In this document: piece after piece, positions 16,598 through 58,890 of the stretch | Numbering within the stretch: position 1 is the first letter of the stretch | Layout: the number at the start of each line of letters is the position of its first letter | NCBI GenBank assembly: GCA_026770705.1 | Contig: JANJGN010000188.1 | Coordinates: 496,001-560,000, forward strand | Direction of reading: 5' to 3' | Source: Isurus oxyrinchus | Taxonomy: Eukaryota | Length of the DNA stretch: 64,000 bases | The notes under the pieces: model-generated | Seen by the model: only the letters and a program-made list of their open reading frames with translations | Told to the model about the DNA's origin: nothing | The model's database searches: none | Position numbers and translations under genes: made by a program

Positions 16598-16948
16598 GAC
16601 ATAGAAGCAGAAATTAGGCCATTCGGCCCATCGAGTCTACTCCGCCATTCAATCATGGCTGATAAGTTTCTCAACCATATTTGCCCATCTTCAACCCATA
16701 ACCGTTGATCCGCTTACCAATCAAGAACCTACCTCAGTCTTAAATACACTCAATGACCTGGCCTCCACAGCCTTCTGTGGCAATTAATTCCATAGATTCA
16801 CCACTCTCTGGCTAAAGAAGTTTCTCCTCATCTCTGTTCTAAACGGTCTTCCCTCTACTCTGAGGCTGTGCCCTCGGTTCCAAGTCTCTCCTACTAATGG
16901 AAACATCTTGCCCACGTCCGCTCTATCCAGGCCTTTCAGTATTCTGTA
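16598..16948 (-). mobile_element. Relatively young CR1 LINE 3' end
   Basis: Near reverse-complement match to 38700-39080. Confidence 0.85.
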
Positions 16949-26021: not shown

Positions 26022-26094
26022 CTCCTCGTCGGGGAATGTGAACCCCGGTCTTCCGCGTGACAGGCAGTGATACTGACCACTATACTAACGAGGA
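26022..26094 (-). pseudogene. tRNA-Asp(GTC), probably a pseudogene (best-preserved Asp copy)
   Basis: TCCTCGTTAGTATAGTGGTCAGTATCACTGCCTGTCACGCGGAAGACCGGGGTTCACATTCCCCGACGAGGAG. One extra base in the T-loop and a mismatch in the anticodon stem. Confidence 0.9.
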
Positions 26095-27044
26095 TATATT
26101 TCTTAATCAGGCTGTAGCGAGGCTTATGGCTAACTTTACTCAGTACCAGCTGAAAATGCTGAAGTGGCACAATGTGGGAATGGAGGGGTTGCGGGCTTCC
26201 TTCAGTTGTCTCATAGACGAGGATGACAGGATACCTTTTCTGATTGAACTCGCTGTTCTTCAATTGAAATCATGAATTTATGGCGCTTAATAACCCAGAA
26301 ATCCACAAACATGTTGAATAAAATAAATTGATTTGTCCTACGATCAGCACATTCATATCATGAAGGATTCCTCATTAGGAGAGATCCTAGATTTATCAAT
26401 GAGAAAATGTTGCCGCCAGTGAGATCTGAGGATACAATACTCACACCAAACTTCCAGGGAAGTTTCCAATATGGGGAATTGTCAGAGAATATGCGGCACA
26501 CGCCTGTGCATAATAACGCACACGACTGACGAAAACATGTAAATCCTGCACCTGCAGTTAAAGTCTAGGAGAGTTCGGAGACAATGAAAATTTCATCAAT
26601 TCAGGCTAAATGTTTTGTGGCAAATCCTGGCAAAATAACACTTCTTCTGACCCCAATTTGGGATTTTTTTTTTAAACGGATAAGGATTTATCTTTCCTGT
26701 TGAAACATTTCTCGACCAGGAACATAATGAGGGAAAAAATACCCAAATGTTAAAATGAAAGGTGAATATATTTATGTTCACTCTGCAGTGCCGGGGGAAT
26801 CCCCGAACCCCAGTCATTATTGTGTCCAGCCTCCTGCTGAGCCACCATCTTGCATTTGTTTATTATTAGCAGCTGTTTATTATTGATCCATCATAAAGAG
26901 CGAGTCAATGTGTGATCGTTGCGATTTCTCATTAAAATTCTCAACCTGGTGACAAGAATCATTCATTGGCATCGATCGACCTCAAAGCTTCTAGGTTGAA
27001 CTAGATAGGCCACTATATGCCTTACAGAGCGGCAGAGCAAGGTC

Positions 27045-27362
27045 TTTCTTCATTCTCTCAAATGTAACATCCCTGACAAAACCGGCATCGCCATCCCTTG
27101 ATAATGGTAAAGTGTGGACCACAATTCTGCAGGCCAGACTGGGCAAGGACTGCAGATTTCCATTCTAAAGTATATTTGTGGGCTTGATATTCGTTTTTGA
27201 AAATCTATGATAGTCTAATGTGGGTCAGCATTATTCAAATTAGGTTTATATCCCAGAATTTCTCAACCGATTTTAAATTCGATCAGTTGCCATAGTTGGA
27301 TTTGAACCCGTGTCCCCTGCGCATTAGCCTCTCTGGATTACTAATCTACTGACATGACCAGA
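27045..27362 (-). mobile_element. tRNA-derived SINE with LINE-like tail
   Basis: Minus-strand GGGTTCAAATCC B-box followed by a common interspersed body. Duplicate at 39505-39822. Confidence 0.7.
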
Positions 27363-27510
27363 GAAAGAGGCCAGTAAATTGGTATAGGTCCCGTTCCCTC
27401 TGATCCATTTCTTGTGAGTATATTCTTGGGAAAGACGAGATGACACCATATGTGAACTGTGAGTGTCACCTAAATAGACGTAATGGAAGGAGGATTCCAC
27501 AAGCACTCAC

Positions 27511-28210
27511 CCACTTTTCATCTTCTGAAATGCTGCCAATTTCCACTGTCATTGCTCTCCAAGGGACCAAAAATAACCCACATGAGCTGTAGCTTTCCAG
27601 GACTCATATCTTCAATGGAAAGAGAAAAAGCGCAGATTACTTTATCTTGCTTCCCAGAGGAATGCAAGGGCTATAAATTCATAAGTCGTGGAGAGAGAGG
27701 AGGGGCGGGGCCGTGTGAGGATGATCCATGCTCATTTCACTACATACAATTGCAGAGACTCTATTCACACAACTCTGTTTTCAGGTGCCTGAAACAATTC
27801 ATCATAATGTGCAGGGACCGGGCAATCACACACTGTAGTGTAAGCTGCTGATTTGTGGGGGCAGTGTGGAAAAGAGAATTCTTACCCAGCTTGTCACACA
27901 GAGGGCATGCTCGTACCTTGGCCCAGCTGTTCAATTAGGCCAGCGGTCTCTCGTTACCTAAACACAGGATACCATTCTCCACACTTGGGACTTCCATTTC
28001 AGTCTGTCACACTCGCTGTTTGACCATTGGCATGTATGGATCTGGGTAAAGTGGTGTTCGAGCGGGGATGCTCGACTGTGCATGTCCATTACACACCAAC
28101 GTCAGTTTAGCTGTTACCAAGTGAAGCACAGGAGAATATGGCTGTGAATGCAGCTGGTGAGGGGCTCTGTGTCTCATTGGCCTGATCTGGCTGTTTTCAT
28201 TCTGACTGGA
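27511..28210 (-). pseudogene. Partial copy 1 of the coiled-coil/BEN-like multi-exon gene (exons B-part, C, D)
   Basis: ENGIL...LNSWAKVRACPLCDKL|GTAAG (donor 27885-27881), then CTACAG|CDCPVPAHYDELFQAPENRVV. Exon D 27511-27609 ends in a GTGAGT donor. Confidence 0.6.
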
Positions 28211-28439
28211 GTCCAATTTCTAGCCTAGGATGCAACATGCAGGCTGGCTCAGCACAGGGCCAAGTGTTGCATTACTAGCGGTCTCAACATTTGGAGGAGG
28301 TTTCAAACTGCAATAGCCCTGTGCCCCATCTCCCTAAAGATCACATTCCAAAAAAAAAGCGGAGAATTCTCATAATATTGCTGCCCTTACATTCTGAAAG
28401 CTCAGATTAACGGGCCATTCATTACCCAGAAGATCCGTA

Positions 28440-30185
28440 AATAAATCAGGATAGTAGTTTTAAGCCATTTCCTCCCCCACCTCACTTCATTTTGTTTACA
28501 GAACAAGACAGCAAAGAGAGAGAGAGGGCGGAGTGAGAGACAGGCCGCAGTGAGACACAGGCGGTCAGACAAAGTATCTGTTCCAGAAAACATTGTAACG
28601 TCAAGTTTTACCGAGAAGATTCAATTGGAGAAGGAAAAGATGCGGTCTCATCTCTCACTGATATTTTACCAGAGAAAAAGTTTATATTAATCTCACACTC
28701 AGGGGCAGTGCCTGCGAGTGTTCCAACGTATCATATTTAACCCACTCTTCCTTTTTGTAATGTTTGCAGCTTAAGGGCTCAGGGTCACTGGGTATTGCTC
28801 CCTGTAACCAAGTGTCTCACTTCGATTAAATGAATCTAGGAGCCCCCTGTCAAATATTAACTATTGCACGGTCCCAGAAAAGTCATTTACTCCTTCGCTC
28901 CTCCCATATTTCTGCAGGTTTGCTTTGTTAAGATGGACTCGGGAACAGCAAATCCCTGCAGGGAATGATCCCAAATTAGGGTCTTTAAAGACACAAGGCC
29001 CCACTTTTCAATGAACTCTGACCTTTCCCCTATCTGCAGTTTTTTTTTTTGCTCAGAAACTGATCAAAGTGAATTGTATCAAAAATGTTGATTTTAGTTG
29101 CTGATTTATTGCAGAAATGCACGCATGAGGTATTTGGGCCCACCCCGAACGCAGCTTGTTCGTGAGTCAGAGGCTGACAGAGACAGAATCAATCCCACAC
29201 TCACGTATAGTCCCAGAGGCTGATATTTGCAGAATCAATCCAACACTGACAGATAGTACCAGAGACTGATATTTACAGAATCAGTCTGACACTCACAAAT
29301 AGTGCCAGAGACTGATATGCACCGAATCAACCCCACAATCACAGATAATGCCAGAGATATTTATCGAATCAATCCCACAATCAAAGGAAGAACCAGAGAC
29401 TGATATTTACAGAATCAATCTCACACTCACAAATAGTGCCAGAGGCTGATATTCACCGAATCAAATCCACACTTACAGAGAGTACCAGAGACTGTTATTT
29501 ATAGAATCATTCCCACAATCGCAGATAGTACCAGAGACAATATTTACAGAATTAATCTCACACTCACAAATAGTGCCAGAGCCTGATACTCACCGAATCA
29601 ACACCACAAATACAGATAGTGCCAAGGACTGATATTTACCGAATCAATTCCACAATCACAGATAGTAACCGAGACTGTTATTTATAGAATCAATTCCACA
29701 ATCACAGTTCATACGAAGGACTGTTATTTTTAGAATCAATCCATATTTACATGAATGGGAAAACATTGCAGGGTTGCGGCGAGTGGCAATGGAAGAATTG
29801 TCTCTTCAGAGGGCTAGCACAGATTGGACAGCCAGAAGACTCTCTTTCTCTGTTGTAACCATCCCATTATTTTGATGGAAAATACTGGAAGAGCTGAATA
29901 GCTCTGGCAATTTGGAAGTTTCGAAAGCGGGTCTGTTCGTTAAACCATCTATCAACCGGATATGTAAATCCCCACTTCCTGTCTCCACAGTTGCTGCTGG
30001 ACCTGCTGAGTGTTTCCAGCACCTTTTGTTAATATTTCGGATTCCCAGGGTGAGCAATATCTCACTTTTTGAACAATAAAACACGTCTTGCGCATGAATC
30101 CATATTCAAATAAGAAATTGTTGGCAGCAGAAAGAAAATATTCAGATCATCGGTGAAATTTACTAAATCCGAATAATTCTATCTA
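28440..30185 (+). repeat. Segmental duplication block, copies at ~55380-56700 and partly ~44310-44820
   Basis: Colinear matches, including the 46-bp minisatellite locus. Confidence 0.85.
29169..29743. repeat. 46-bp minisatellite, ~12.5 copies
   Basis: Consensus AGAGACTGATATTTACAGAATCAATCCCACACTCACAGATAGTACC, read unit by unit. Confidence 0.95.
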
Positions 30186-30845: not shown

Positions 30846-31478
30846 TTATTTTATCATGATGAGGATTATAGTCCAAGGAATTTTCAGTATCTTCTTCAGC
30901 TCTTCCCTGAATTTTGTTTGCGCAGCTGCATAAATAATCGTATTTCTGCAGGAACTCAAATACATGAGCATTTGTCCAGTTTGAGTGGCGATGTATGTAG
31001 GAGCTGGATAATCAGGTCGTACATGAATGGCCATACCACTGACTAACGACCAAACGACTGCTGCCAGCCACAATAATATCAAAGTGCCCGATATAGTGAA
31101 CAGTAAAATAATCGATTCCTGGATCACTCTTTTTCCGCTGCTGTGACCCCGCAGCTCCTTACCGGCTCGACTGGCAAGTAAAATCCGTCTGATTGTCAAC
31201 TAACTAAACCATAATATCAAAGTGAAAGGAATCCATGTCACTAAAATAATTTGTTGCCATATTAATATTACACCAAAAGGAAATGTATAAAAATCCAGAC
31301 TGGACCGGAAAACCCATTGAATATTGTCAATTGTTCGCTCAGGTTCAAATGTAAACCAATTTGGTATGTTCTGTAAAAGTGAGAGGACACAGACTGATGT
31401 TCGAACTGTAGCTGCAGTTCTCACTGTGCAATACCTTGTCTTAAACTTGTGGCTACATATACACACAACTCTGTCATT
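30846..31478 (-). pseudogene. GPR139/GPR142-like GPCR pseudogene (end of TM3 to C-terminus)
   Basis: DRVVCICSHKFKTRYCT, WIPFTLILWFS*LTIRRILLASR, SIILLFTISGTLILLW, LSSCRNTIIYAAAQTKFREEL. In-frame TAG at 31200-31202, shortened ICL3, TM1-3 missing. Confidence 0.9.
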
Positions 31479-32292
31479 CATCAGAGGGCAAACGCAAGGC
31501 AAAATAAGAGTGAGCTCCCCCCGCAATGTTGCCCTGTCGCCTGTGCAGTGGCGCTGCTGTATGACTGTTACTCAGATAAATACATCAATCACAACGGCAG
31601 TTAGCCTGTTATTTGCCGCTTTCCCAACTTGCTCTAAACGCCGAATGTAATTGATTGAGGGCCGGGCGGAAATATATTTCAGTTCCCTGCCCTTGCAACT
31701 CCCCCGAATTATTGTACCAAATTTAAATTTTAACAGGCACTGGGTAATTCCTCGTTGAAGCCCGCATCGTGAGTTTGCACGACCTTCCTTCTAATACGCC
31801 AAGAAAAGCCATACGCTTCAATGCAACACCCTTGAGATACAGCACCATTTAGACATTGCTTTTACTTCAATGTTTGCAGTGCTTATACTCAGAATTTATC
31901 ATCCTTCTGAAGGCAAATGTGAATGAGTAACTTGCACTGATCATGCGCAACATCCCCACATCCGAAATAAATGGAAGAGAAGAGATTGCCTGAGATGTCA
32001 GTCTTCTGATGACGAGCACTTGTGCAGCTTGAGGTTTGCTTTCGACAGGATATTTTCAACGTTGAGAAGAAGGAGAACGTATCTGTTGCTGAACAGCATT
32101 GTGAAGATCGTTTCATTCAGCAGCTCTGGGACAAACATATCCTTAGGTCTCTCTGGTAACCTGAAGCTTTGACTCTGCAAATACGAGAATTCCAGCCTCT
32201 GCGATCAGTCAACAAGGAAGAATGCTGAATTCTCCACTCACTGCCAGTTGAATTTGAAAACCATATGATCATACCAATCGGTTGGCAGCTGT

Positions 32293-32366
32293 GGGCTGTT
32301 AGCTCAGATGGTTAGAGCGTCATGCTAATAGCACCAAGGTCGCGGGTTCGATCCCCGTACTGACCA
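32293..32366 (+). pseudogene. tRNA-Ile(AAT), probably a pseudogene
   Basis: GGGCTGTTAGCTCAGATGGTTAGAGCGTCATGCTAATAGCACCAAGGTCGCGGGTTCGATCCCCGTACTGACCA. A and B boxes look intact, but the anticodon stem has two mismatches. Confidence 0.9.
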
Positions 32367-33339
32367 ATGCAGCACTACCTGTTCTTGAACAACAGTCACC
32401 CTCGCTGCGTCCGATTATAATTCAAAAGTTATCACATCGGACGAATACTACGATGTCGTTAATTTATAGTGTTGCCGGTTGTTTTTGGTTTTCTTTCCCA
32501 CTTCTTGAGTCTGGAAAATTCCTCCATCTTTTTCTGACAAATTCGTTATTCTTTTAGTATTTCTGTGCCACAGGTCTGTTGCTAACATGACAACAAAACT
32601 TTGCTACTGTACAGCAGCCCATAGTGTCTGCTCTAGCTCTCCATAAGAGACATCCGCTGCCTTCTCCCCCTAGCCCTTTACATTGTTCTTTTTGAGATAA
32701 TAGGCTACCTCATTTTTTAATGTTTCAATTGAACCTGCCGCCACCAATCTCAGGGAGTGCATCCCAGGCCGTAACCACTTTCAACGAGAAAAAAGTATTT
32801 TCCCTCATGTCATTTTAGATTCTTTTACCAATTAGTTTCAACCTGTGCCCTTTCTATTTAGATCCTTTCGCAGATGGGAACACGTCCTCCTTATGCACAC
32901 GGCCCAAACCCCTCATGATTTTCAATACCTCTATCATATCAGCTGCCAACCATCTCTTCTCCAATGAAAACAGCGCTAAAGTATCCAATCTATCTTCATA
33001 ACTGAAGTTGCTCATCCCAGAAACCATTCTTGTGATTCTTCTCCGCATTCTTTCCAACATCCTTAACATCTTCACATCCTTCCTCAAGTGCAGCGCCCGG
33101 AAAAAGACGGGATACACCAACTGAGGCTGAAATAGTGCCTCATACAAATCTCATTTGCCCTATTTCCATTACAACGCTCTTTGAGCCATGACAAATGTTG
33201 TCTGCTGCCCTCACAGGCAATCGCTTTCGACGCAACCCCACAACCAATGGAACAGGTCTAAGCTCTGAAGTTTTTCCACATCGAGTCATGAATGGTGATG
33301 GGTAATTAAACAACTAACTGGAAGGGGAAGCTGCGCGAA

Positions 33340-35741: not shown

Positions 35742-38661
35742 TGAATTCGGTAAAATCACACCAGCAAACTGTCCCAAGGACTTAAGAAAAAAGTTATCAT
35801 TAACAATAAAGCTGACGCTCAGCCATGCAAGGAGACATTGGGTCAGGTGACAAAAGCTTTCACAAAGAGGTAGATTTTAAAGAGCGTCCTATGAATTAGA
35901 GAAGTGGAGGGGTTTAGAGAGGGAGTCCAGAATTTTACACCAGGTCAGCTGAGTGCACGGTTGTCAATGCTGTAGTGATTAAAACCCGGAATGTACAAGC
36001 TGGCAGAAAAGCAGAAATCTGCACGTTTTCTTGGGCTGGAGGAGGTTACAGAGAAAATGAGGGGGAAGTCATGGGGAGATTTAAAAGGAAGGATGAGGGT
36101 TTTAAAATTGAGGCAATTCCAGGCCAGGAGCCAGTGTCGGTCAACAATGACTGTGCTGATTGGTGAACTGGACTTGGTTCAGGTGAAGTACCAGGAAGCA
36201 GAATTTTCGATGAGCACAGTTATCTGTGGGGTGGAACATGTGATGCTGGCTAGGGGGACGCTGGAATAGTCAAGTCTAGAGTGAACAAAGATATGGAAGA
36301 GGGTTTCAGCAGCTGGTTAGCTGAGGCACGGTCAGATTTGACCGATGTTTAGGCTGTGCAAGTACAATGTGTTCAACTGATAACGTTCTCTCAGTCTGTC
36401 TAATGTCAATCAGTTTTATCAGGGATAATGGGAGTAAATTGGATCCAGCTTCAGGCTTTATTTTTCAATATTAAGGATGTAACTGTATCTATCTCTGGAT
36501 AATTTTGTCAGTGCGGGAGCTTTCACATTTCACTGTGATCAGAAGCTGAACAAAGTATCCCAGACTGAGAGAAAAGACTGAGACACTTTAAAGCTGACAA
36601 TTGCCCTTCAAGTGGCCCAGTTGGGATCATTTCCTGCAGGATTTTTGCTGTCCATGAACCATTAACATCAATAATTCCTGGCACTGGGTTCACTGTGAGG
36701 GATGAAGAGTCAGTGAGCAGAGTGGAGTGTCACAGTAGTTCCGTTCGTGACTCTCCCCATCCCGGTAGTTTAGTGAGGATCGGTCTATCTGGGAATGTCC
36801 CAAATTCCGCCTGATTACCATCCTTCAACCCTGAGACAACTGACAGCTGTCAGTTACTCCAGTATCGGGATCACGGGGAGTTCATTGTGGTTCCCTGTTT
36901 AAACAATGCAATAACAAACAAGGTTCATAGAAAATATCATAACTCAGATTCAGAAGTAGATGAGGACATGGGGGCAATGTGCGCAGTCGACCTTCTGTTT
37001 CAAGTTCCTTAACGATATGGAAAACTCAATGATATTTGTTGCATTGTTGCTATTTGGTCGTGTGGCCTACTAAATAATGCTTTCTACTTCCATATGTCGT
37101 GCAAGGTTATCAGAAGGTTTTTTGTTGGAATCATGTAATTTGTCTTATGATCGCTTCACGCAGATAAATTGCTGTGTACAGATTGTCTAGCACACCTTGT
37201 GTGTAGAAATTTTTTCTAATTCCCGTGGTAAACACTCTGGGTTTAGCTCTTTGACGGTGGCACTGGTTCCTAGATTCTCAGTCAGCGGAAATAGTTTTGG
37301 GCTGATCTTACCTGTTCAAAGTTACAATAAATGTAACTAATCCCTCCTTCTATCATCAGGAATGACCTCGGGAAAGGGAAAATCAGTTGGTTAAGTGCCG
37401 GGACTGAGTTGTGGCTTGGTGTCAGGGAGTGAAGAGGATTAGGAAGGAGCTTAAGAGACAAAGAGAGTTACAGAGGAAGAAAGCTGAAAGATTGGCGAGG
37501 AGGAAGAGAGAAGAATATGAATGGCGTTCATCATTTTTCAAATTTTCTTCCATGAAGCATCAAAAGAGAAAATAACCTCTGTGCCAAGGAGCTGCTGATA
37601 GTGCAGAGACCAGAAAATATAACTGGAATTAAGAGAATCATCGTGTTCACTGAGGGAGAGGCAATGGGATTAGAAAATAAAAGTTACGATGGGGCCGGAA
37701 ATGAAAGGCAGGATCCAGAAAGCTGCTGTCTGAACGCAAAGTAAATAAAGGGAACAAATAAACTTAACAAATGAACAAAATGGTGGCAGAGGTTATAATG
37801 TAAGTTATTCTGTCATGTTACAGTCACTGTTTACAAGATGCGCATTTACTCTCAAATTATTAATGAATTCTGCCGAATTAGTCATTACTAAATCGAGTGC
37901 AGCCGCTTCATCTAGTTTTTAATATATGGTATTTTAGCAAGCTTTCCTGGTTTCAAGCTACCAATTCACTGATTTCACTGAAATTTCGATTCAGCCCAGT
38001 TGAAATGAAAAGCCAGCATGGGTGCCGGGACACATACGGGACGTGGGCTAACTATTGATGTGAAGGGTCGTTCCTCTCAAGGAACAGTATTATTCCAGGA
38101 CTCTGAAAACAACCACAGTTCCTGAATCTCTCCCGTCACTGACTCCCAATCCTGTCGATGGTGCTATCTCATGAACTCCAAGAAGGTAACGCATTCGCTC
38201 ATTAAAATCACAAGCATGACTCTTTTACTGAAACATTTGGTCTCAGGCAGAGAGCTTAGTTCACCACCAACACCTCCTGGGAATTACATGCAATGCATTC
38301 ACTTGCTTAATAAATGCCTGGTTACTGGTTGATATATGCACACACCCTTGTCAGCCTCAATGGCCTTCAAGAGTAAAGGCTTCCTCCCATCTGGTTTAGA
38401 AGATGCGCCCCTGCAGTTTGAGTTCAGAAGGACATCACTAGTGAAGACTGCATGCACCAGGCGGCTTATAACCAGGATTCTCTTTTCTAAATATTTCAGA
38501 GTCTGCAATTTTTCTGGTGCTATAAAAAAAAATTGACGATGATGCAGTTCCACCTTCTCTTGCCCGCAGTTCTGAAAGCTAGGGACTTAATTTGAGACCC
38601 TGATAGTCCGATGGCTGCAAGTGGGTGTTGCTGCTACACCACGATGGGATGTGAAAACGTT

Positions 38662-39100
38662 TGAGGACTCCGGGTCTATACTCAATGGAGTTTAGAAGAA
38701 TAAGGGGGGGATTTGATTGGAACTTACAGGATACTCACAAACCTGGATAGAGTGGACGTGGGGAAGATGTTTCCATTAGTGGGAGAGACTAGGAACCGAT
38801 GGCACATCCTCAGAGTAAAGGGAAGACCTTTTTGAACAGAGTTGAGGGGAAACATCTTTAGCCAGAGAGTGTTGAATCTATGGAATCCATTGCCACAGAA
38901 GGCTATGGAGGCCAGGTCGTTGAATGTATTTAAGACTGAGATAGATAGGTTCTTGATTGGTAAGGTGATCAAAGGTTACTTGGAGAAGGGGGGGAAATGA
39001 GGTTGAGAAACTTATCAGCGATGATTGAATGGTGAAGCAGGCTCGATGAGCCGAATGGCCTAATTTCTGCTCGTATGTCTTATGGTCTTATGGTCTTATG
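38662..39100 (+). mobile_element. Young 5'-truncated CR1 LINE
   Basis: GLYSMEFRRIRGDLIGTY... with a 3' UTR ending in (TATGGTCT)n-like tail repeats. Confidence 0.9.
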
Positions 39101-41302
39101 AAAATAGACAATATGCTTTCATTTCATTTTCAATTGTAATTGTGTCATGCCTCCTTTCCCACTCCCATTATTTAATCCTGCCTCCAGGCGGTATCCTTTA
39201 TGAAAAAATGGATTCTCGAGGAACTTTGTAATTTCGGCATGCATTGATGGTTGATTGGCAGTTGCCCCCTGAGGTCTGCCATAATTCTGGTAAGAACTGC
39301 TGGTCTTTTTGCAAAAGATTTTAAAAAAATGTTTCAATGATGGACATCGTATCATCGTAAAGAACGAGTCAAAGCTTGATCGCTGTGATTTCTCATTTAA
39401 ATTCCCAGCGTGGTGACAAAAAACACTCATTAGCATCGATCAACCTCAAACGTCAAGGCTCAACTAGGCAGGCCACTATGTGCCTTAGAGTGCGGTAGAG
39501 CAAGGTTTTTCGTCATTCTCACCAATGTAACATCCCTGACAAGGTGGGCATCCTCATCCCTTGAGAATGGTTAAGAGGCAACCACATTTCTGCAGGCCAG
39601 ACTGGGTAAGGGCAGCAGATTTCCATCCCTAAAGGACATTTATGAATCTGATTTTTTTACATCAACCAATGATAGTCTAATGTGAGTCAGCATTATTTAA
39701 ATCAGATTTATATCCCAGAATTTCTCAACTGATTTGAAATTCGATCAGCTGCCATAGTTGGATTTGAACATGTGTCCCCTGAGTATTAACCTCCCTGGAT
39801 TACTAATCCAGTCACATGACCAATAAAAAAGGCCTGTCAATTGAGGTAAGCCCCATTCTCTCTAATCCATTGCTTGTGAGCAGATTCTTGGGAAAGTCGA
39901 GGGGGAGAACATGATGTGAACTCTCAGCATGACCTAAGTTCACATAATGGAGGGATAGTTCCACAAGCACTCACACACTTTTCATCTTCAGACCTGCTGT
40001 CAACTGCCATTGTCCATGCCCTCCAAGGGACCAAAAACGTCCCGCATGAGCTTTCAAGGTTTCATAGCTTCAATGGAAAGAGGAAACTCGCAGATACTTT
40101 ATCTTGCTCCCCAGAGGAATTCAAGGGCTATAAATTCAGAAGCCGTGGAGGGGGCGCAGGGGCGGGGGTTGCATGGGGATGATCCACATGCATTTCATTA
40201 CATTCAATGGCAGAATCTCTATCCGCACAACTCTGTTTTCAGGTGCCTCAAACTATTCATCATAATGTGCAGGGACCCGGCAATCACACACTGTAGAGGA
40301 AGCAGCTGATCAGCTTAGTGCAGCATGGAACAGAGAATTCTTTCCCAGCTTTGTGACACAGAATACATGCTCGTACGTTGGCATAGCTGTTCAACTGAGT
40401 GCACAGCCTATCGTACTCTGCACACAGGATACCATTCTTCTGTCTCACAGCTTTCCGTTCAGCCTGTTGCACTCGGTAGCAGAAATGTAGTATGCATGGA
40501 GGTGGATAAAGTGGTATTGGATCTGCAATGCTGGACAACGCATGTGCATTACCCACCCATGTAAATTCAGCTGTTACCAAAGGAAGGTCAGCAGAATGTG
40601 GCTGTGAATGCAGCTGGTGAGGGACTTTGTGTCTCATTGGCCTGATGTGGCTGTTTTGTTTCTGACTGTGGGCTAAACGTTGACTCTCAGCCTCCTGCTG
40701 CCTTTCCTCCTTCCCTCTGGCTAGCTCACTCGGCTCCTTTCCACTGTCACTCTACAGAGTGTCCGTTTTCACCAATGCTGAGCACTGCTCGGTGCCACAG
40801 TTGGAGGTTGACAGGTTCCTGGTGGTGGATGATTCCTCCTCGTACTCCACCTCCAGCCTGGCCATTGTGCCTGCAAAGAGCAGTCAGCTAGTCCCCAACC
40901 TATGCCCAGGTGAGGGAAACTGTTTTCGCTTTTTCTGTGGTGAGCAATCGCCATTGCCATGGAGTCAAGCGGCTGGAGGCTGCACACTGCCCTTGGTCTT
41001 CACTTTTTTCACCTTCTGTGTGCTCGCTCCTTCTGCACGGTCAGCAACAGCGTCCAGCTGCAGATCAACAGTGTGCTGGGCTCCTTCATTAACTCTGCAA
41101 ATGTAATATTTGAATGTCTCTGAAATCAGTCAATTCACAATAAATAGGATTGAATAAAAGTGTTCTTTGTTTATTGCAGCTAATATATCTGCCTCTGTAA
41201 CAGTGCAATGATCATTGCTTGTGCTGTGCTCTGCAGACAAGAACATAAGCCATTTACGTGAGTTCACTATTACACGTGGACTAGTTCATCCTGTGAGCAG
41301 AG

Positions 41303-41713
41303 ATGGCTTGTACCAAAGAGATAGCCTGGAAGTCCACCGGCGGCAAAGCGCCCAGGAAGCAGCTGGCCACCAAGGCAGCCCGGAAATGCGCCCCCTCCAC
41401 TGGCGGAGTGAAGAAACCTCATTGCTGCAGGTGTGTTTTCAGACGTGCTCCGAGAAATCAGCCGATGACAGAATTCCACCCAGTTGCTTATCCGCAAACT
41501 GTCCTTCCAGCACCTGGTGAGGGAAATTGCCCAGTGCTTCGAAACTATCCTGAGGATCAGTGTGCGGTAATTGGAACATTGCAGGAAGCCAGAGTGGCCG
41601 ACTTGGGTGGCCTGTTTGAGGATACCAACCTGTGTGCCACCCATGCCAAAAGAGTGACCGCAATGCCCAAAGACACCCAGCTGGCACGACGGCTCCTGGG
41701 GTAGTGTGCCTAA
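41303..41713 (+). pseudogene. H3F3: Histone H3.3-type intronless pseudogene
   Basis: 411 nt from ATG to the ancestral [34 protein letters not shown] (S31) and AVIG at 87-90. Frameshifts and stops. An A14 tract lies at 41940-41953. Confidence 0.92.
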
Positions 41714-44700
41714 ACTCTTTGCTTCATTACATTTCCTCCATACTATTTTGAAGTGACGTTTAAACATTTTCTGAAACATTATTGGACTGTTGGTTTAGCT
41801 TCTTGTGGAGGCTGGGCCTTTATTTTGTATTTTTGTTAGTTTTGAGTATTGAGCGTGAATCAGTGTGGAAGCAGCGAAACATTTTGTAAGCAGTCCTTCC
41901 AAACTCTTGGCTCAGGTTGCAAAATGAACATTAGTATGTAAAAAAAAAAAAAATGAATTGGTCGAGTTTGACCTATACATGCACGTCTAACAGGAAGTAT
42001 TTCAGAAACGATTGTGCAGAGTGATTTTTTGAACAGTTTTCTGGTTACTCTTACACTCTATGTTGTTTGCCATGACCCCAGGCCTATTCAATAACCTAGA
42101 TTTTCACTGTCAAAAGCGCTGATCTTCACTGCGGTCTTCTCTATGTTACAGTAGGAGAAAATAAAGAAGAAATCTTACCACTTATTATCAAAATTTCGCC
42201 AAGAAACTCCCTCCCCCCTTATATTTCACAGGGCCCGTCCCCCCTCCCTCCCTATCCTACTTGTCGCTCACGGCAGACAGCGGTTCAATCCTGGTCAGCA
42301 GCTCCACGTTCCAGAAAACCAGCCATAACTTTCGAGTCGTTACAGTGTCCATATGGTCGATAGGGATGGTGATAAGACTGGACAAACCCTGGTAGGAACC
42401 TGCTGAGGGACTGTTTAAGGTCAATGGTCAGAATGGCAGCAGTGGTCAGAAAAGACTGAAAATTAGTGGCGGGAAGCAAAAAGATCTGGGAACACGTTAT
42501 GACAAGGATTGATGACTACACCAATCTAGAGATTTATTTGAAATCTATTGGAATGCAAATGTTCCTAGAGCATTTCAACTGGGGGTAGTTATTAAACCTC
42601 AAGTGGACATTTTGTCCACTTCAAACTAAGTTGAAGAAAACCGCTCCTTGTATGCGGGGAAGGCACTGATAAAGAGTGGAAACTGAAACATTGTCTGAAT
42701 AAAGCACGAGCGGCAGATGAAGAGATTTCCGCGGTTCAGATAAACATATAACAAAGATCATCCCCTGTATGTGCTGGAGGTTTTGGAGATACCCTTGTGG
42801 TGAGGACTGCCTGCGGTCATTGTTTCTCTGCTCTACATCCAGAGAGCAGGGAGTGTAATTTCTCGCCGAAGATGCACCATGCCGACTGGCTCAGCACAGG
42901 GCCGACTGCTGCATAACTAGCGGCCTCATCATGTGGAGGAGGTTTCAAACTGCAGCAGCCATATGCCCCGTCTCCCTAAAGATCACATTCGGAGGATGAA
43001 GCGGAGATTTCTCTCAATGTCACAGCCCTATGCGGAAATATTTGATTAACTGGACATTTATTTCAAAGAATATGGGAAAAAAAATCATTGGATATGTTTC
43101 AATCCAGTTGTTCCCCTCTCTCACCCGCCTCCCCCACTAAAATGAACTCCAGGCTGGTCTGTTTCCCTCCACCCACCCTCTATCACCATGCCGTTCTGGC
43201 TCCCCCTCCCCAGTCTACATGCTCTCCTGACTCCCCCCTTACCCTTACCGAAGAACAAAATAATTGTTTGCATTCGCATCCCCTCTCTAGGGATCTACAT
43301 GGTTCCGGACTTGCCCTTCACCCACGCCAGATTTGAAAACATTTAGCCTCTCCCAGCTCGGGTCTAAGGCTCGAACCTCTCGCATTCTCGCTCGTGCTCA
43401 GTCCTGATCCACACGGACCTTCTTCAGTTACCGATCTCAAACAGAAAGGGGCACCCTGGGAGCGGCAGGTACTGGGGAGTGGCCTCTGGACCACACGAAG
43501 GGTTTTTAATGTGACCACTTCTGTGTGTCTGGGAGGAGCAGAGGCGAATCCTCTAATACTGACCATCCCAGGCAAAGGCTGCATTCCGACTTCCTGTCCC
43601 ACAGCAAGAGGGTTTAGATGATGTTTGGAGAACTAACAATGTGCGGGGTTGTGGGGTGAAGGCAGGTGAATTACATCAGGTGAAATATTCATGCTGTAAA
43701 ATCCTCTATAAATTGTGTTTCGTTCTGCTATCGCTTTCAAAAATTACCGGCGGGAATAACTCCTCGTTCACAACAATCTAAAAGTGACAAATGAAACTTG
43801 AACATGCAGCAAGGCTGTAAAGTAGGCACGACACAAATGTAAGTCGGAAAGTAAGTTGTGAAGAGGGCGTGAGACTCTCAATATGTTACGTGATTGGACA
43901 AAGACTTAGCAAATGGAATAGAATGTCGTAAAACGTCAGGTTGTCCATTTTGATTGGATGGACAAAAAAGAGGCACATAATCCAACTGGTGAGAGATTGC
44001 AGAGCTCTGAGATGCAAAGGAGACTGGGTATCCTACTGCATGAATCATTTTGTTTCCGTGCACTGCTAAACTCTCCAATACCATTGAAAATCGGACAGTC
44101 CAGAGTCCCATGGGAGATCCTTACTTTCTCCGAGACCAGGATGGGTGCTTTTGAAAAGTTCTCATTCGCTGAAAAAGCCTCAGTTTCGACTTAAACCTAT
44201 TTTATTGCTGCAGAGATCGCGCTCTCTCACCCATTCACTAATATGTTCTCTACTTTCCTACTGAAGTCATAAAATCAACTAAATATTTCCGTTTAATTCT
44301 CACTCAGAGGTGTGTAAGTATTAACTTTTGCACGGTCCCAGCAAACTCGCTAGCCCCTTCACTCTTCCCACGTTTCTGCTGGATTGTTTTGTGAAGATGT
44401 GCTCAAAAATAGCAAATGGCCTGTGGGGAATGAGCCCAAACTGTGCTTCCTAAAAGGACAAGTCCGATTTTTCATTGTTCTCTGACCTATTCCCTATCTC
44501 CAGTTCTTATGTTCAGATGCGGAACAAAGTGAGTTGCAGAAAATGTTCATTTCACTTGCTGATTTGCAGCGGAAAACCGCGCATGAGGTATTTAGTTCCA
44601 AACTGAACGCAGCTTATTCATGAGTCGGAGACTGATAGATACAGAATCAATCCCACACTCACAGCTAGTAACAGAGATTGATATTTACAGAATCAATCTA

Positions 44701-45039
44701 ACATCCATCCGTGGTGCCAAAGACTGATATTCGTGCGCAGGAATCGATATTCAAATAAAAAAATGGATGCAGCAGATGGAAAGTATTCAGAGAATCACTG
44801 AATGTGACAAATCTGAGTAATTCTATCCCGGCTCCACACTACAGCTCAGGGAAAGCCTTTATTATCATCAAGAAGGTATACATCTGAGTTACATTTTAAA
44901 TGGAAGATACGTGGAGGTGGGAAATAATTATATTTCTATTAAACCCGCCCGTGTGTTCGGAGCACAATCTCACCGAAATGGATCAATTTCAGCTTCAAGC
45001 TAGGGGTTTCTGGTTTGAGAGGTTTAACAACCAAGAAAC

Positions 45040-47320: not shown

Positions 47321-48813
47321 TAGGTGGGATGTACATAAGAGAATGTCAATGAGGATGGAGGGCAGGGGGAATGGTTTCATGGTTACAAAAAATATGTAAT
47401 GGCTGTAGGAAAGAAAGCAAGACAATGTGTCTCCATATAAGGTTGTGAATGGACACTTAACAACAGTCCGAATGTAACATGAAAGAATAAAGAGAGAAAC
47501 TTGACCAAACAATGTTGAAGCAGGTGTTCTGATCTAAAATTGTTGAACTCAGTGTTCAGTCCAGAAGGCTCTATCCCACCCAATTGATTGACCAGGGGCA
47601 GTTCCTCGAGCTTTGCTCTTGTTGAGATCCGTTATTTGCTGGAACGTGTTCTGTTATTCTAAGATCCTGGTTGTTCGGTGACTACCTCCCTATGTTCATT
47701 TTTCTCTCATATTCCTTTAAAACCTCTGTTAAGAAAACTCTTTGAAACTCTGATCTATAATAAAGCAATGGGTTAAACATTAATTACCGTAATCAGAAGC
47801 TCCAGCGTCATTTGTGTGCAGAATTATTTTCTAATTCCCATGTTAAAATCTTTGGCTTTAATTCTTTGACTGTGACCTGGGTCCTTGATTCCCAGTCAGC
47901 GGAAGTAGTTTATCGGCCGATCTTATCCGTTCAACGCTACAATCGAAATTGACAAATCCCTCCTGCAAACAAGAGGAAGGATTTCGGTAAAGGGACAGTC
48001 AATGGGTTAAATGTAGGGGCTGAACTGTTGTTTAGTGTCGGGAATTGAAGAGAGTTAGGAGCGAGTTCATGAGACAGAGTTACAGAGGAAGAAAACTGAA
48101 AGATTGGCGAGGAGGAAGAGCGAGGGATATGAATGACGTTCAACATCTTTCAAATGTTGCTCAATGAAAGACCGAAAGAGAAATTAATCTCTGAGACAAG
48201 GAGCTGCTGATCCGTGCAGGGACCATAAAATCGAATCGAAATTTGTAGAATCATGGTTTTTACTGGGGGAGATGTAACGGGACAAGCAAAGAAATAAAAA
48301 TGGTGAATGATTGGGAGCATAATAAAAAGCTGCTGTCCGGAAACAAAAATAGGAGGGGAAAAGTAAATCTTTTAATCCGAAAAAATGGTGGCAGGGATTA
48401 AAATGTAAGTCACACTGTCATGTTACTGTTGCCCTTTTGAAGATGCACTTTTGCTATCAGATTATTAATGAATTCTGGCTCGTTACTCATTACTAAGTTC
48501 AGCATGGCCGGTTCCTCTCGGTTTCATAGTGTCTTGTTTCAGCAAGCTAATCTAGATTGAAGCTACCGATTCACCGATTTTCCGGATATTCCGATTCAAG
48601 CCAGTTTAGGTGAAAAAACAGTTTTTATGCTAAAACACACCCAGGAATGTCGTCCAACTATAGACACTCATTTTCCCACACTCTCACACAAGTCTGAAAA
48701 CAACCGCTGTTCCTTTACTGGCACGAAATGTCAACTTTATATCAACCATTTTCCAATTCTGAAGCCGATTCCAATTTTGTTTGCTTTCTTTGTGTTAATT
48801 TGTAATAAAATGC

Positions 48814-48885
48814 CTCCCCATCGGGGAGTCGAAACCCTGCCTCCCGCCTGACAGGCGGGGTTACTGACCAGTATAGTAACGAAGA
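48814..48885 (-). pseudogene. tRNA-Asp(GTC) pseudogene
   Basis: TCTTCGTTACTATACTGGTCAGTAACCCCGCCTGTCAGGCGGGAGGCAGGGTTTCGACTCCCCGATGGGGAG. The anticodon stem is intact, while the D arm and A box are mutated. Confidence 0.88.
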
Positions 48886-50609
48886 ATAAACAAAAATAAT
48901 TCGAAGTAAAGGAACCTGGGGTTAGCTGCATACTGTAATAAATGAAATTGAAGAGGTGGTCTAATGTGGGGCTTCAGGGTGTGCCTGCTTCCTTCAGTGA
49001 TCCCAGAGAGAAGGATAGCAGGATAACTTCTCTAAGTGAAGTCACGGTGTCTGAATTCCAATCTAGGTTTTATGAAACAAAAAAAAAACATGCTGGAAAA
49101 ACTCAGCGGCTCTGACAGTATCTGCAATGAGAAAGGCAGAGTTAACGTTTATAATTAATAGCGTCAAACGGACGTGAAACGTTAACTCTGCCTTTGTCTC
49201 CACAGATGCTGTCAGTGGTGTTGAGTTTATCCAGAATTTTTTTGTTTGTTTCAGATTTCCAGCATTCGCAATATTTTGCCTTTAGCCTGGACTTCATAAT
49301 GCTGAATAATCCACAGATTGACAAAATTATTGAACAATAGAAATTGAGTTGCCCTATGGTCAGTACAGTTATATCATGAAGAATTCCTTGTGAGTGTAGA
49401 GTCTCCATTTCTCAATGAGAACATGCGGCCGACAGTGAGACCAACGCATGTAATACTCACATCAGATTTCCAGGATAGTTGCCAATTTCTGCAATCGCCA
49501 CACTTCCGAATTTATTTATTAATTTTAATTTATTTATTTCAGGTGTTTTTTTTTGTCAAAGATTCCCCGCCACTTACTGATCTATAATAGGCAGGTTGAC
49601 TTCCTCCCCTTTTTTGAATATGGATGGAACATTTTCAATCTTCCAGTCCTCTGGCACCAATGGATGACTCTCTCTCTCTCTCTTTCTCACCACAGCACTA
49701 TCGCTACTTCCCCTTCTCCCAAGTATTTTCATAATTGCAGTTTACGGTTTTATATATACTTGATTGTCTTGATAACAAACGATAATTATTCTCGTTTGGG
49801 TGAGTCAGATATATGAGAACACACTCTACAATATGAATACGTTCAATAATTACTGATTATAATCATGTAGATGAATATTGCTTACAGTATTACAAATGTG
49901 ATTAATTCTGAGGTCGATATGTGTGGTGGGGGTACAGAAAACATTTGTATGGTGGGCTGTTGGTGAGCTCCAGTCCATTGTTTGTGGTAGAAACTGTTTG
50001 TTGGAATTTCAGTCTGGCTAGAATTGATTAGATGAGTAGATTACAAATGATTGATTCGATTAAGAATCCAATGTTTTGCAAGAGAGAGAAAGAGAGACAC
50101 GCTATCCAATTGGCATAAGGCCTGGTCTCTATGATCCACTGCTTGTGGGCATGTTCACGGGAAAGTCGAGGGTGAGGGCATGATGCAATCTCTCAGTGAG
50201 GACTGACTTCACATAATGGAGAGAGGGTCCTGCAAGTACTCACCAAATTTTCATCTTCATTCCTGCTGTCATTGATCTCAAAGAGAGCAACAATGCTCCT
50301 CATGAAATGCAGCTCTCCATGATTCACAGCTTCAATGGGGAGACGAAAATCACAGGTTACTTTCTCTGGCTACCGGAGGAATCCAAAGGTTGCAAATGCA
50401 GCAGGCATGAGATGAGGATGGATGGGGAGGTGGCGGGGATGATATACATATATTGCATGACATCCAATTGCAGAACCTGCACCAGGATTAGAGGTGGCCA
50501 ATTCTAAATTCTCACAACACCGGGTCAGGTGTCTCAGACAACATATCATAATATGCAGGGACACAACAACCACACACTGTGGTGTCGTGTCCTTGTCCAA
50601 AATGTTCAA

Positions 50610-51282
50610 TTTCAATAACACAGACCTCCCTGTCACTTGCCATTTTCAAACTCCACCCTGTTCCCTTGCCCACCTGTCTGTCCTTGGCTTGCTGCATTGT
50701 TGCAGCGAAGCTCAACGCAAACTGGAGGAACAGCACCTCATCTTCCGGCTAGGTACTTTGCAGCCTTCCAGACTGAATATTGAGTTCAAAAACTTTAGGT
50801 CTTGAGCTTCTTCATCCATCCCGACCCCCTTTCCGTTTCTTCCCCCTCCCGTTTGTTTTTTTTTCAATAATTTATATAGATTTTTCTTTTCTCACTTATT
50901 TCCGTTATTTTTAAATCCATACGTTTTATGCCCTTTTAATTTTATTTCACTCCATCCCCGCTAGAACTATTTGTACATTGCGTGTCCTGCCATGCAGTCC
51001 TAATTAGCACATTATTTTAGATAATATCACCAGCTTCAACTTCTCTTTGTTCTTTTTTCTGTGACATCTTTAGATTATCTGCTCCTATCACTGCTTGGTT
51101 GTCTCTACAACCACCACCACAACTTCTCTCCCACACCCCCACTTTAAACCAGCTTATATTTCACCCCTCTCCTATTTTTACTTAGTTCTGTTGATGGGTC
51201 ATGAGGACTTGAAACATCAACTTTGTTCTTCTCTGCCGATGCTGCCAGACCTGCTGAGTAGTTCCAGGTATTTCTGTCGTTG
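50610..51282 (+). mobile_element. Penelope-like element 3' fragment (GIY-YIG C-terminus and terminal repeat)
   Basis: DLPVTCHF..PPCS.AHLSVLGLLHCCSEAQRKLEEQHLIFRLGTLQPS.LNIEFKNFRS*. Confidence 0.85.
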
Positions 51283-51299
51283 TAGTCTAATCTCTTTTT

Positions 51300-54200
51300 C
51301 TCTGCACGCAGAACTCCATTCTCCTGCGTCAGCAATTCCATTTCACCCAGAATCTCTCGTAGGCCAGAGTGTGCTTGTCCACCGAAAACATCTGGGTGTA
51401 TCACCCCTGGTATTTAATGATATGGGTAAAGTGGTGTTGGACCTGTGATACTGGCCAGTCCATGTCCATTTCCCACCCATGTAGGTTCAGCTGCTGACAA
51501 ATGAAGCTCAGCCTGATGTGGCTGTGAACGCAGCTGCTGAGGGGCTCTGTGTCTTATTGGCTTCTTGTGTGACTGTTTTCATTCTGACTGGCGGAAAAAC
51601 GTTAACCCTCCTCCTCACGTTTCCTTGCCACCAACTCTCTGGATGGCTCACTTGGCACCTTTCAGCTGCCACTGTGTGGAATGTTCATTTTCACCAATGC
51701 TGACCGCTGATTGGTGCCACTGCTGGAGGTTGACACAATCCTGATGGGAGGTAGTTCCACCTCTCCCTCCTCATCCTCCAGCTGCCCACTATCCCTGGAC
51801 ACAGCAGCCAGCTAGCCTCCAAACTAGTCCCAGGTGAATGACAGTATTTGACTCTGTTGCCATGGTGAGCCACATCCATTGCCAAGTAGACAAGCGGTAG
51901 GAGGTTGCACACTGACCTTGGTCTTCACTTCATTCATCTACTGTGCGCTCGCTCAGCTGCACATCAACAGTGTGCTGGGCGATCTTGAGCTCTTTCCTTA
52001 ACTCTGCAAAAGTAACATTGGAATGTCTGAGAAATCAGCCAGTTCACGATGAATAGGATTAACGGGAAGGATTATTTGTTCATCACTTGTCACAGCTTTT
52101 CTTATGTGCCTCTGTAACAAAGCAATGATCATTGCTTGTGCTGCACTCCACAGACAAGAACATAAACCATGCATCCGAGTTCACAATTGCTGGCGGACAC
52201 GTCCATCCTTTGAGAGGAGATGGCTCGTACCAAACAGGTCGCCCGCAAATCCATCGGCGATAATGAGACCAGGAAGCAGCTGGATACTAAGGCAGCCAGG
52301 AAATGTGCCACCTCCACTGGCGAAGTGAAAAAAAAACCTCATCGCTACAGGCCAGTTACTGTCACGCTCCGAGAAATCCACTGATGCCAGAATTGCACAG
52401 AGTTGCTTATCCGCAAACTGTCCGTGCAGCGCCTGGTGAGGGAAATTGCCCAGGGCTTCGAAACTGACCTGAGGTTTCTGAAAGCTGCAATTGGAACTTT
52501 GCAGGAAGCCAGTGAGGCCTACTTGGTTGGCCTGTTTAAGGAGACCAACCTGTTGCATCCATGTCAAAAAAAGTTATGTAGCACCCAAAGACACCCAGCT
52601 GGCACGACGGATCCCGGGAGAACGTGCTTAAACGCTTTGCTTGATTATATTTTCTCCAGACGATTATGAAGTGACATTTAAACAATTTTTAAAGCATTAT
52701 TGGACTGTAATATTGGCTTCTTTTAGAGGCTGGGTCTTTATTTTATATCTTTGTTATTGTTGAGTATGACCATGTCTTATTGTGGAAGTAGCAAAATATT
52801 TTGCAAACCTTCCTTCGAACTCTTGGCTCAGTTTGAAAAATAAAGCACTTTTATCTTTAACAAATAATACAAGAAAATTGTCGAGTTTCACCTATACACG
52901 CACGTCCAAATGGACACATCAAAGAAACAATTGTGAACAGTTATTTTTTTAAACAGTTTTCTGGCCAGTCATACACTCTACGATGCTTGGCATGACCCGA
53001 AGCTTAGTTAATAATCTAGCTTTTCCCTTTCAAATACGCTCAACTTCAGTGCGGTCTTCCCTATGTTACAGTCAGAGAGAGTGAAGAACAAATCTTCCAA
53101 CCTAGTCTCAAAATTTTCCTTAAGTACTTCCCTCACCCCTTTTATTTGACTTCTTCCATCCCCTCTTCCTCTGGATCCTTCTGCTGCCTCATCGGAGACA
53201 GCAGCTCAATCCTGGTCAGCAGATCCGCGATGCAGCACATCAGACAGAACTTCCGGGTCACTACGGCTGGATCTGCCGGGGGTGCCGAGTGCTCGGCAGC
53301 AATAAGGTCACTTATGTCCAGATCGCTGATAGGGAAATGAATAATAGTGGACAAAGCCAGATTTTAGCTTGCTGAGGAAGTGAGAACGGTCAATGGTCAG
53401 AATGACAGCAATGGTCAGAAAAGACTGAAAATTAGTGGCGGGAAGCTAAAAGATATGGGAATACTTTATGACAAGAATTGGAGTGACTATACCTATTGAC
53501 ATGCAGGTGTTTCTAGACCATTTTCAAACGTGTGTAATTCTCAAACTTCAAGCGGGTGCAAACACTCTGTCCTCTTTAAACTAAGTTGAAGAAAACATAT
53601 CTCTATATCTGGGGATGGGACTGAGAAAGACTACAAACAAATAATGCTTCATTTAAACAAGAACAGCAGATGAAGAGACTGCCACAGTTGATATAAAAAC
53701 ATGAGCATCATTTTTTGGCGAAAAATCAGTGTAGATGTCTCAAGCCAGTTCCTGTCTCCTCTCACACGCCTCCCCCACTAAATACAAGTTCATACCGGTG
53801 TTGCTTCCCTCCTCCCACCCTCTAACACCATTCTGTCCTGGCTTCCCCTACCCATTCTCGGTGCTGGCCTTACTCCCCCCTACCCTTCCGTAATATCACA
53901 ATAATTGTTTGTATTCGCCACTCCTCCGTCTCTTGGGATCCACATCGTTCTGGCCTCGCACTTCACCCACAGCCAATTTAAAACTTTGTGGCCTCTCCCG
54001 GCTCGGGACTAAGGCTGCAATCTCTTGCATTCTCGGTCCCACTCACTGCTGATCCACATGGAGCTGCTTCAATTACCGATAACAAAGAGAGAAGGGGCAC
54101 CGACCAGCACAGAATGTGGAAATGCTCCTGGGAGCAGCAGGCTCTGGGGCAGTGGCCTCTGGACCACACAAAGGATTTTTAATGTTCACTCCTTTGTGTG

Positions 54201-58149: not shown

Positions 58150-58890
58150 AGCTCTGCAGTGTCAGAGTGGTAGAATGAAGGATAACTGCACTGCCGAGCA
58201 TCAGGAATGAAGGAGCACTTCAATCTCAAAGCTTCAGTGCTTACAATGCGTTGCACTGTCAGACGGTTTGGGCTGAGAGAATGTTGCACAAATAGAGGGT
58301 CAGGATTGATTGAGTGCTGCACTGTAATAGGGTCAGGACTGAGGGAGAGCTGTACTGTCGGAAGATGAGGTCTGAGGCTGTTGCATTATCAGAGTCGAAA
58401 GAATGAAGGAGCGTTGTTCAGTCAGTGGGTGAGCACGCAGAGAGCGCTGCACTGTCAGACGGTCAGGACTGATAGGCACTGCACTGTCAGAGGGTCAGGA
58501 ATGATTGAGCACTGCACTGTCAGAGGGTCAGGACATATCGAGTGCTGCACTGTCAGAGGGTCAGGACTGATGGAGTGCTGCACTGTCAGAGGGTAAGGGA
58601 TAAGGGAGCAAAATGCTTTCAGATGTTCAAAACAGAGGGAGAGCAGCACTCTCATTGGGTCAGAAATGAGGGACCGCTGCGCTTTCAAAGCATCAGGAAA
58701 ACTGAAGCGCCGCACAGTCAGTGGGTCAGGAATGAGAGAGTGCTTTTCTGTCAGAGTTTCGGGAACGATGGAGAACCGCACAGTCAGAGGGTCAGGAATG
58801 AGGGAGCGCTTCACTGTCTGTGTTTTGGGAATGAGGGAGATGCGCATAGTCAGTGGGTAAGGACTGTGAGGGCTGCACTGTCAGAGGGGA
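58150..58890. repeat. 33-bp minisatellite, ~22 degenerate copies
   Basis: Consensus GCTGCACTGTCAGAGGGTCAGGA(A/C)TGAGGGAGC, which explains the periodic CTVRGSG and PDPLTVQ ORFs. Confidence 0.93.

Follow-up and report, generated by a model that had tools for sequence, protein, structure and literature searches.

A decayed BEN-domain gene among shark tRNA repeats stems from the second gene of a CACTA/EnSpm transposon

Here we describe a decayed gene of the shark Isurus oxyrinchus, found in a window of 64,000 nucleotides (contig JANJGN010000188.1; G000:C188:496001-560000), the whole stretch of DNA that we analysed from this 5-Gb genome. Five minus-strand exons, A, B, C', D and E, are defined by the alignment of its copies. 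Because these exons are physically linked elsewhere in the genome to a transposase, to inverted ends or to both, we identify the gene as part of an animal CACTA/EnSpm DNA transposon, as its second gene, and not as a host gene family. We consider it highly probable that the exons in the window are a broken copy of this second gene, that its product was likely a helper binding the ends of the element, and that the copies likely rose in number as passengers within a tRNA repeat. A first-pass annotation, made from the letters of the window, had proposed a spliced gene pairing a coiled coil with a BEN domain, damaged here, and that description holds. Below, C labels denote contigs of the genome and L labels loci; "dispersed" copies are those at the C3, C7, C10, C11, C15 and C23 loci, and the remainder, associated with the tRNA repeat, are "cluster" copies.

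Linkage to a transposase and gene structure

Exons of the gene are joined to the transposase, to element ends or to both at five loci on four chromosome-scale contigs, listed as C23, C3, C11, C10:161 Mb and C7. The C23 relic carries a left end, transposase, exons A, D and E and a right end, and C3 has both ends, a whole transposase and exon E. At C11, a left end is accompanied by the 3' half of the transposase, which adjoins exons B to E on the opposite strand. Transposase is found with exons A and B at C10:161 Mb, and both ends with part of exon B and exon D at C7. In these dispersed relics the gene and a CACTA-type transposase face each other head-to-head, flanked by CCCTAC inverted ends. 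The gene had been called possibly transposon-borne, with a look for terminal repeats or a transposase at copies elsewhere as the proposed check, and the physical linkage now bears this out.

The transposase itself is degenerate everywhere we found it. With the C11 fragment as query, nine matches at seven loci were obtained, none with an open frame above 185 aa. A 165-aa open piece matches Transposase_21 (E 1.6e-5) and a C(2)C motif is visible in the translations; the H(3-4)H motif described in PMC12730594 is not evident in them, DxxH being present instead.

The ends share the consensus CCCTACCAGAAAA on both sides of the element. A search with the left end returned 321 candidates on many chromosomes, 40 of which were scored, and among 24 new left-end loci nine are two-ended, with a span of 1.0-1.7 kb and a CCCTACC start; several include DNA directly 3' of exon E. 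Five of these nine two-ended short copies are flanked by 2-bp target duplications (p about 3e-4 at a chance of 8% each) and none by 3-bp duplications. Subterminal repeats recur within the ends: TGACATCA occurs four times in the left and three times in the right consensus, and CATTTG seven and six times, counts that none of 300 shuffles reached. Ends starting in CACTA were tried and rejected, with five matches against two in controls and three new places that proved unrelated; the true start is CCCTAC. Short non-autonomous derivatives of 1.0-1.7 kb, with CCCTAC ends and 2-bp duplications, are abundant on many chromosomes (L113-L135; 321 candidates). Also on C11, from L050:3923 onward, is a 319-codon open frame unrelated to the CACTA element, whose motifs resemble those of a Harbinger-type transposase.

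The most complete copy in the window, copy 2 (38128-43029, minus strand), is an internal fragment of the element that carries the gene; it is 62-67% identical to the dispersed C10 copy over 43029 to 38136. Searches of the window with end and transposase profiles found neither a terminal repeat nor a transposase in it. Exon A (42179-42355), placed by alignment and translations, has a phase-1 GTAAG donor at 42178 and an approximate 5' boundary. Its ending in EFLGEILIIS G before a GTAAG donor, at 42179, was read correctly from the start, and a paralogue lies at 53100-53259. The exon carries a stop and a frameshift, and the likely start codon, seen in C10:161 Mb, has been lost to a deletion; from sequence, we predict that it was coding. 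Exon B (40345-41094), phase 1 to 1, encodes a low-complexity linker followed by a short predicted coiled coil, and its 3' end consists of a short heptad stretch and xPLxD. In copy 2 it has frameshifts, three stops and a dead donor (GA), and the dispersed C11 copy retains open pieces of 138 and 99 codons. Neither exon A nor exon B matched any Pfam family.

Exon C' (39975-40067) runs from phase 1 to phase 0, with a phase-compatible acceptor at 40067 and a phase-0 donor at 39975; its frame is broken by four stops in copy 2, and a 95-nt open version exists in C11. Exon D (38346-38571) is open over 226 nt, runs from phase 0 to phase 1 and encodes the N-terminal two thirds of the BEN domain. The first-pass readings of exon B (here 41094 to 40345), of an exon end in phase 0 (here 39975) and of a phase-0 open exon (38571-38346) all agree with this structure. 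The intervening "exon C" that had been read as starting CDCPVP (40223-40290, minus strand) probably belongs to an intron: in nine of ten aligned copies, both dispersed ones included, its frame meets a TGA after 21 codons, and in-frame dN/dS (the ratio of nonsynonymous to synonymous substitution rates) is 1.8 on these 21 codons. The extra CxxC..CxC motif proposed earlier is likewise not kept, as the second cysteine position of CPLC holds D and N in the two dispersed copies that have the stretch, and Y in two of eight cluster copies. Exon E, which encodes the C-terminal BEN helix, survives as a remnant of its start (38128-38177); its acceptor is mutated, codon 4 is a stop, and the truncating deletion also took the downstream tRNA-Asp. 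This last exon, from 38177 onward, was overlooked in the first-pass annotation, as was a plus-strand histone H3 pseudogene within intron 1.

The BEN domain and its nearest host relative

Exons D and E encode a BEN domain nearest that of NACC, an assignment that rests on comparison of sequences and of intron positions. Exon D alone gives weak Pfam matches, to DUF4806 for the window copy (E 0.17) and to BEN for its paralogues (E 0.04-0.14); DUF4806 is termed a BEN subtype in the available part of bioRxiv 2023.12.06.570431. When a profile of 13 exon-D copies was run against 1.84 billion representative proteins, one real relative was recovered beside two low-complexity matches. This protein, XP_078415413.1 of the basking shark Cetorhinus maximus, is an uncharacterized product of 142 aa, 50% identical to the window exon D. 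It joins D to E with the phase we had predicted, which confirms this last splice. Against the sequences of NACC1 BEN structures it scores E 3.3e-8 alone and the family profile A2 scores 5e-12, with nothing else under E 1, and the match covers the domain in full, EKxEL and CTNARR among the shared residues. The BEN check suggested earlier for 38346-38571 divides: the window exon by itself has no BEN match, and the family profile does.

Further indications come from database neighbours and gene organization. Of 30 neighbours in the ESM Atlas, 19 are clusters with BEN in 15-33% of their members. The BEN fold has five helices and a middle loop (PMC10789644), and our predicted models place helices where expected, at low confidence (pLDDT, the predicted local confidence score, of 48 and 61); two fold searches with these low-confidence models listed no BEN structure and gave no significant match. 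The phase-1 intron between D and E, after AxK/R, is matched in 11 of 15 host BEN domains, namely all eight split host exons and all three NACC loci, and the four domains of a one-exon BEND3-like gene are unsplit at this site. Host gene names other than NACC, such as BEND3-like and BEND5-like, are labels that we presume to be correct. The three NACC-type genes, L099 (C8), L100 (C16) and L101 (C29), have identical BEN-domain intron positions, and further host BEN exons lie at L093, L094 and L098 (C18:10.5-10.6 Mb), L095 (C23:4.79 Mb) and L096 (C10:79.5 Mb).

When the 15 host half-domains in the genome were scored, NACC was the best at 33 bits and the next reached 22. The kinship with BEND5 and BEND6 suggested at first does not survive this comparison, with the BEND5-like half-domain at -0.9 bits; nor did an exon-A profile match the first exon of the BEND5-like gene, in what is a weak test. 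A tree of 23 BEN half-domains gave low support for any sister group of the element, and for the other host BEN genes the C-terminal half of the domain was not recovered. Word-index protein searches, which are weak evidence, found no relative of greater length.

The similarity to NACC raises the question of whether the element took up a NACC-like gene of its host, in the manner of Pack-CACTA elements, as cargo with no part in transposition. NACC is the top host match and shares the intron that precedes the last BEN exon, in keeping with such a capture. However, NACC has two extra introns within the region that is a single exon in the element, and lacks the acceptor of the element's exon D. No BTB-like part is seen in the element gene, the tree fails, with low support, to join the element to NACC, and across dispersed copies the BEN exons have the same dN/dS as the transposase. 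We regard capture as improbable. A reading of the apparent exons as open frames that arose by chance in degenerate repeats is scarcely credible, and for exons D and E it is refuted: missed Pfam cut-offs and low-confidence folds would be expected of such frames, but not the NACC1 match (E 3e-8 to 5e-12), the same splice in an independently annotated protein, the conserved intron or frame-specific selection. That the structures are non-random is also shown by at least 142 genome matches to the BEN exon, far beyond chance.

The basking-shark protein is probably a gene model built on a relic of the element that the present genome also has (C15); its 30-aa start maps to an element intron, and its counterpart on C15 is frameshifted. 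That counterpart, L075 (C15:35492574-35493276), is 82-87% identical to XP_078415413.1, its first 30 residues included. The shared locus suggests that the insertion predates the split of the two species.

Copies probably multiplied in a tRNA repeat

The window is composed of diverged segmental repeats with a mutual likeness of 65-80%, in a setting of tRNA genes. A tRNA-Asp(GTC) gene of the repeat unit lies at 26021-26094 on the minus strand (ARAGORN and Rfam), a second tRNA-Asp(GTC) gene or pseudogene at 48812-48886 on the same strand (ARAGORN only), and a tRNA-Ile(AAT) gene at 32292-32367 on the plus strand (ARAGORN and Rfam). Large tRNA clusters have been reported from sharks and rays (bioRxiv 2025.06.08.657570, in the part available). 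The genome search with exon D returned 142 matches from 150 scored of 202 candidates, so that all such counts are lower bounds. Three of them are dispersed (C7, C10 and C11; C15 and C23 were added later), and at least 139 are clustered, comprising nine on C20:79-81 Mb, one on C17 and 129 on small contigs.

We fetched 33 of the clustered matches for analysis. All 33 share flanking unit DNA with the window, a tRNA call lies about 1 kb downstream of the BEN exon in 17, and profile searches of these loci and of the window found no element end and no transposase. Thirteen copies have all five exons, 13 have only D and E, four lack A and the start of B, and three lack most of E. Not one is intact; 12 of the 13 five-exon copies have an out-of-frame, stop-bearing C' and the remaining one a frameshift in D. 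The exon-E acceptor is intact in one of 34 cluster copies, and among dispersed copies in C10, C15, C23 and C3. On C17:88.41 Mb (L025/L052), a tRNA repeat unit with a gene fragment stands on another large contig, beside tRNA-Gly and tRNA-Ile calls. Insertion targeted to tRNA genes was considered and dropped: C7, C10 and C11 have no nearby tRNA, and on its tRNA side the cluster fragment lacks an element end.

Selection separates the two sets of copies. With stop and gapped codons masked, exons D and E (91 codons) have a dN/dS of 0.55 across five dispersed copies, with a log-likelihood (lnL) of -1128.7 against -1134.9 at 1.0 (2 x lnL gain about 12); shifted frames give 1.29 and 1.33 and intron 0.85-0.98. 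The transposase gives 0.59 (seven copies, 165 codons), against 1.05 and 1.36 in shifted frames. The BEN exons were thus under past purifying selection across dispersed copies, like the transposase, and values below 1 for both fit a gene maintained while the element was active. In 34 cluster copies, D and E give 0.90, a lnL 0.4 from neutral, with intron controls of 0.73-1.20; the cluster copies evolve neutrally. The expansion that had been taken for a lineage-expanded gene family therefore consists of broken fragments without ends in a tRNA repeat, and the intact relatives thought possible for it were not found among the copies analysed in the genome. We predict that the window locus has no working protein product today.

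Several observations weigh against a transposon helper carried passively in the cluster. We found no intact autonomous element and no single relic with five exons and transposase; target duplications are not visible at C23 and C3; and the transposase falls short of the curated Transposase_21 cut-off (24.7 against 28.6 bits). XP_078415413.1 (P0001) misses the gathering cut-off of Pfam BEN (PF10523), at 13.4 against 23.2 bits for the full domain, with half-domains at 12.9-14.5, and the window exon D alone matches neither BEN nor any Protein Data Bank (PDB) entry. Exons A to C' match no database protein and give no signal of selection, on few codons mostly from cluster copies; too few codons were available for dN/dS of the coiled coil and C'. 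Within the cluster, most copies preserve exon D at 226 nt, the D and E frame is stop-free in 12 of 34, a frame-restoring pair of 1-nt indels at the start of D is common, three copies have a stop-free C', and the 33 copies fetched are a sample of at least 139 matches.

Some of these facts would suit a functional, lineage-expanded shark family of coiled-coil and BEN factors in the tRNA cluster, like the zinc-finger and DUF4806 genes of zebrafish chromosome 4: the number of clustered matches, the preserved length of exon D and the stop-free frames, and the annotation of the basking-shark relative as a protein. A tRNA-rich region of zebrafish is also described, in the part of bioRxiv 2023.12.06.570431 that we draw on, as keeping DUF4806/BEN genes. 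However, the dN/dS of the cluster copies falls inside the intron range, none of the 33 is intact, a dead acceptor is common to copies and exon A is wholly missing in 17 of 33. The basking-shark model, moreover, begins within an element intron and its C15 match is frameshifted. A functional family is already disfavoured, and we judge it very unlikely.

Two partial copies accompany copy 2, and the first-pass count of three copies is correct for the 5' exons but not for the BEN exon, which is found once in the window. Copy 1 (26285-28485, minus strand) comprises the end of exon B (27886-28058), exon C' (27511-27609) and the tail of exon E (26838-26884), with exon D deleted. Copy 3 (50107-53702, minus strand) has exon A (53100-53259), exon B (about 51300-52003) and exon C' (50244-50329), and no BEN exons. 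The processed H3 pseudogene in intron 1 of copy 2 (41270-41955, plus strand; Pfam Histone E 5.5e-10) has a poly(A) tail and, judged by its residues, is presumably of H3.3 type. It is missing in three cluster copies (L028, L045 and L046) and in C10, and entered the intron after the element landed. Copy 3 carries it as well (about 52181-52669, plus strand); a possible 14-bp target duplication accompanies the pseudogene, which was amplified with part of the cluster and is usable as a marker to date duplications. A young interspersed repeat (38725-39088) is inserted in the intron before the BEN exon, with 86% identity to 16589-16948 and a gap at its place in most other cluster copies.

Other parts of the window hold further features. 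We dropped 43080-44745 as a part of the element, as its matches to dispersed loci are common repeats only. Tandem arrays of a 46-bp unit, variable in copy number, occupy an equivalent position in each repeat unit (29183-29742, 44628-44731 and 56137-56284), and a degenerate 33-bp satellite lies at 58296-58886. Self-inverted, palindromic repeats are found at 210-493 (about 285 bp) and 49073-49253 (about 180 bp). On the minus strand, reverse-transcriptase fragments of a LINE occupy 61909-63146 (RVT_1, E 6e-5), and a 117-aa open frame at 30849-31199 with a weak 7tm_1 match (E 0.023) is perhaps a fragment of a receptor gene.

A candidate helper protein and known systems

In maize, TnpA binds subterminal repeats. 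We propose a model where exons A, B and C' share a reading frame with D and E and would encode a protein of about 500 aa, which may form an oligomer, perhaps a dimer, through its coiled coil and bind the subterminal repeats rich in CA(T/A)TTG. Such binding could bring the ends of the element together or control a promoter that serves both genes, a role like that of TnpA in maize En/Spm; we think the mechanism somewhat more probable than not. TnpA binds DNA and regulates the promoter of its element, according to the available text of PMC1636069. The CA(T/A)TTG motif resembles CAATTG, the site of Insv and BEND6 (PMC11514455, in part); the CATG site given there for NACC is absent from the left-end consensus, which also counts against our reading, so that the resemblance is a hint only. 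At the cluster, one already damaged copy probably lay beside a tRNA-Asp gene, and segmental duplication of the unit would then have produced the at least 139 copies.

The window locus itself is dead DNA, and the interest lies in the family. It puts BEN forward as a candidate for the helper protein of CACTA elements in animals, here within a vertebrate genome and with a candidate binding site in the element ends. It is tempting to speculate that BEN is the TnpA-equivalent end-binding protein of animal CACTA/EnSpm elements and that vertebrate BEN factors, NACC first, were domesticated from such helper genes, with the shared intron as a fossil and the shark family as the nearest mobile relative of NACC; we hold this to be a doubtful, though worthwhile, possibility. 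As a mobile BEN gene stands beside NACC in sequence and intron position, an origin of vertebrate BEN factors of this kind is testable by phylogeny. The shark tRNA cluster also holds a warning for annotators, since its more than 100 BEN-like "genes" are neutral passengers. We found no description in the literature of a BEN domain with EnSpm or another DNA transposon, the main BEN surveys and Repbase lying outside our scope, where the pairing may be catalogued. BEN genes are known in viruses (PMC5704228, in part).

Among known systems, the closest are the animal CACTA elements termed TRC, SmTRC1 of Schistosoma and those of Tribolium and Aedes, which have CCC ends, a 2-bp target duplication and Transposase_21 in the available account (PMC1636069). 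The shark family shares terminal inverted repeats starting with CCC (CCCTA in Tribolium also), the 2-bp duplication, Transposase_21 and a second product without a transposase domain. It differs in that it is dead and lies in a shark genome, and in its second gene: the second products of TRC elements arise by alternative splicing of one unit and, in that account, matched nothing known, whereas in the shark family a separate gene of the opposite strand codes for the second product, with its BEN domain. To maize En/Spm, with its transposase TnpD and TnpA, the likeness is in the two-protein design and the repeat-rich ends. Plant elements have CACTA ends and a 3-bp duplication, however, and maize TnpA is spliced from the same transcript as TnpD. 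The BEN domains of NACC1 and NACC2 (PDB 8yzs and 7bv9) are the best sequence match and have the same phase-1 intron before the last exon, yet NACC is a single-copy host gene with BTB and BEN domains, two more domain introns and a CATG site. The basking-shark protein XP_078415413.1 belongs to the same family and shares the join of D to E, differing in that it comprises the BEN exons only, behind its 30-aa start from an element intron.

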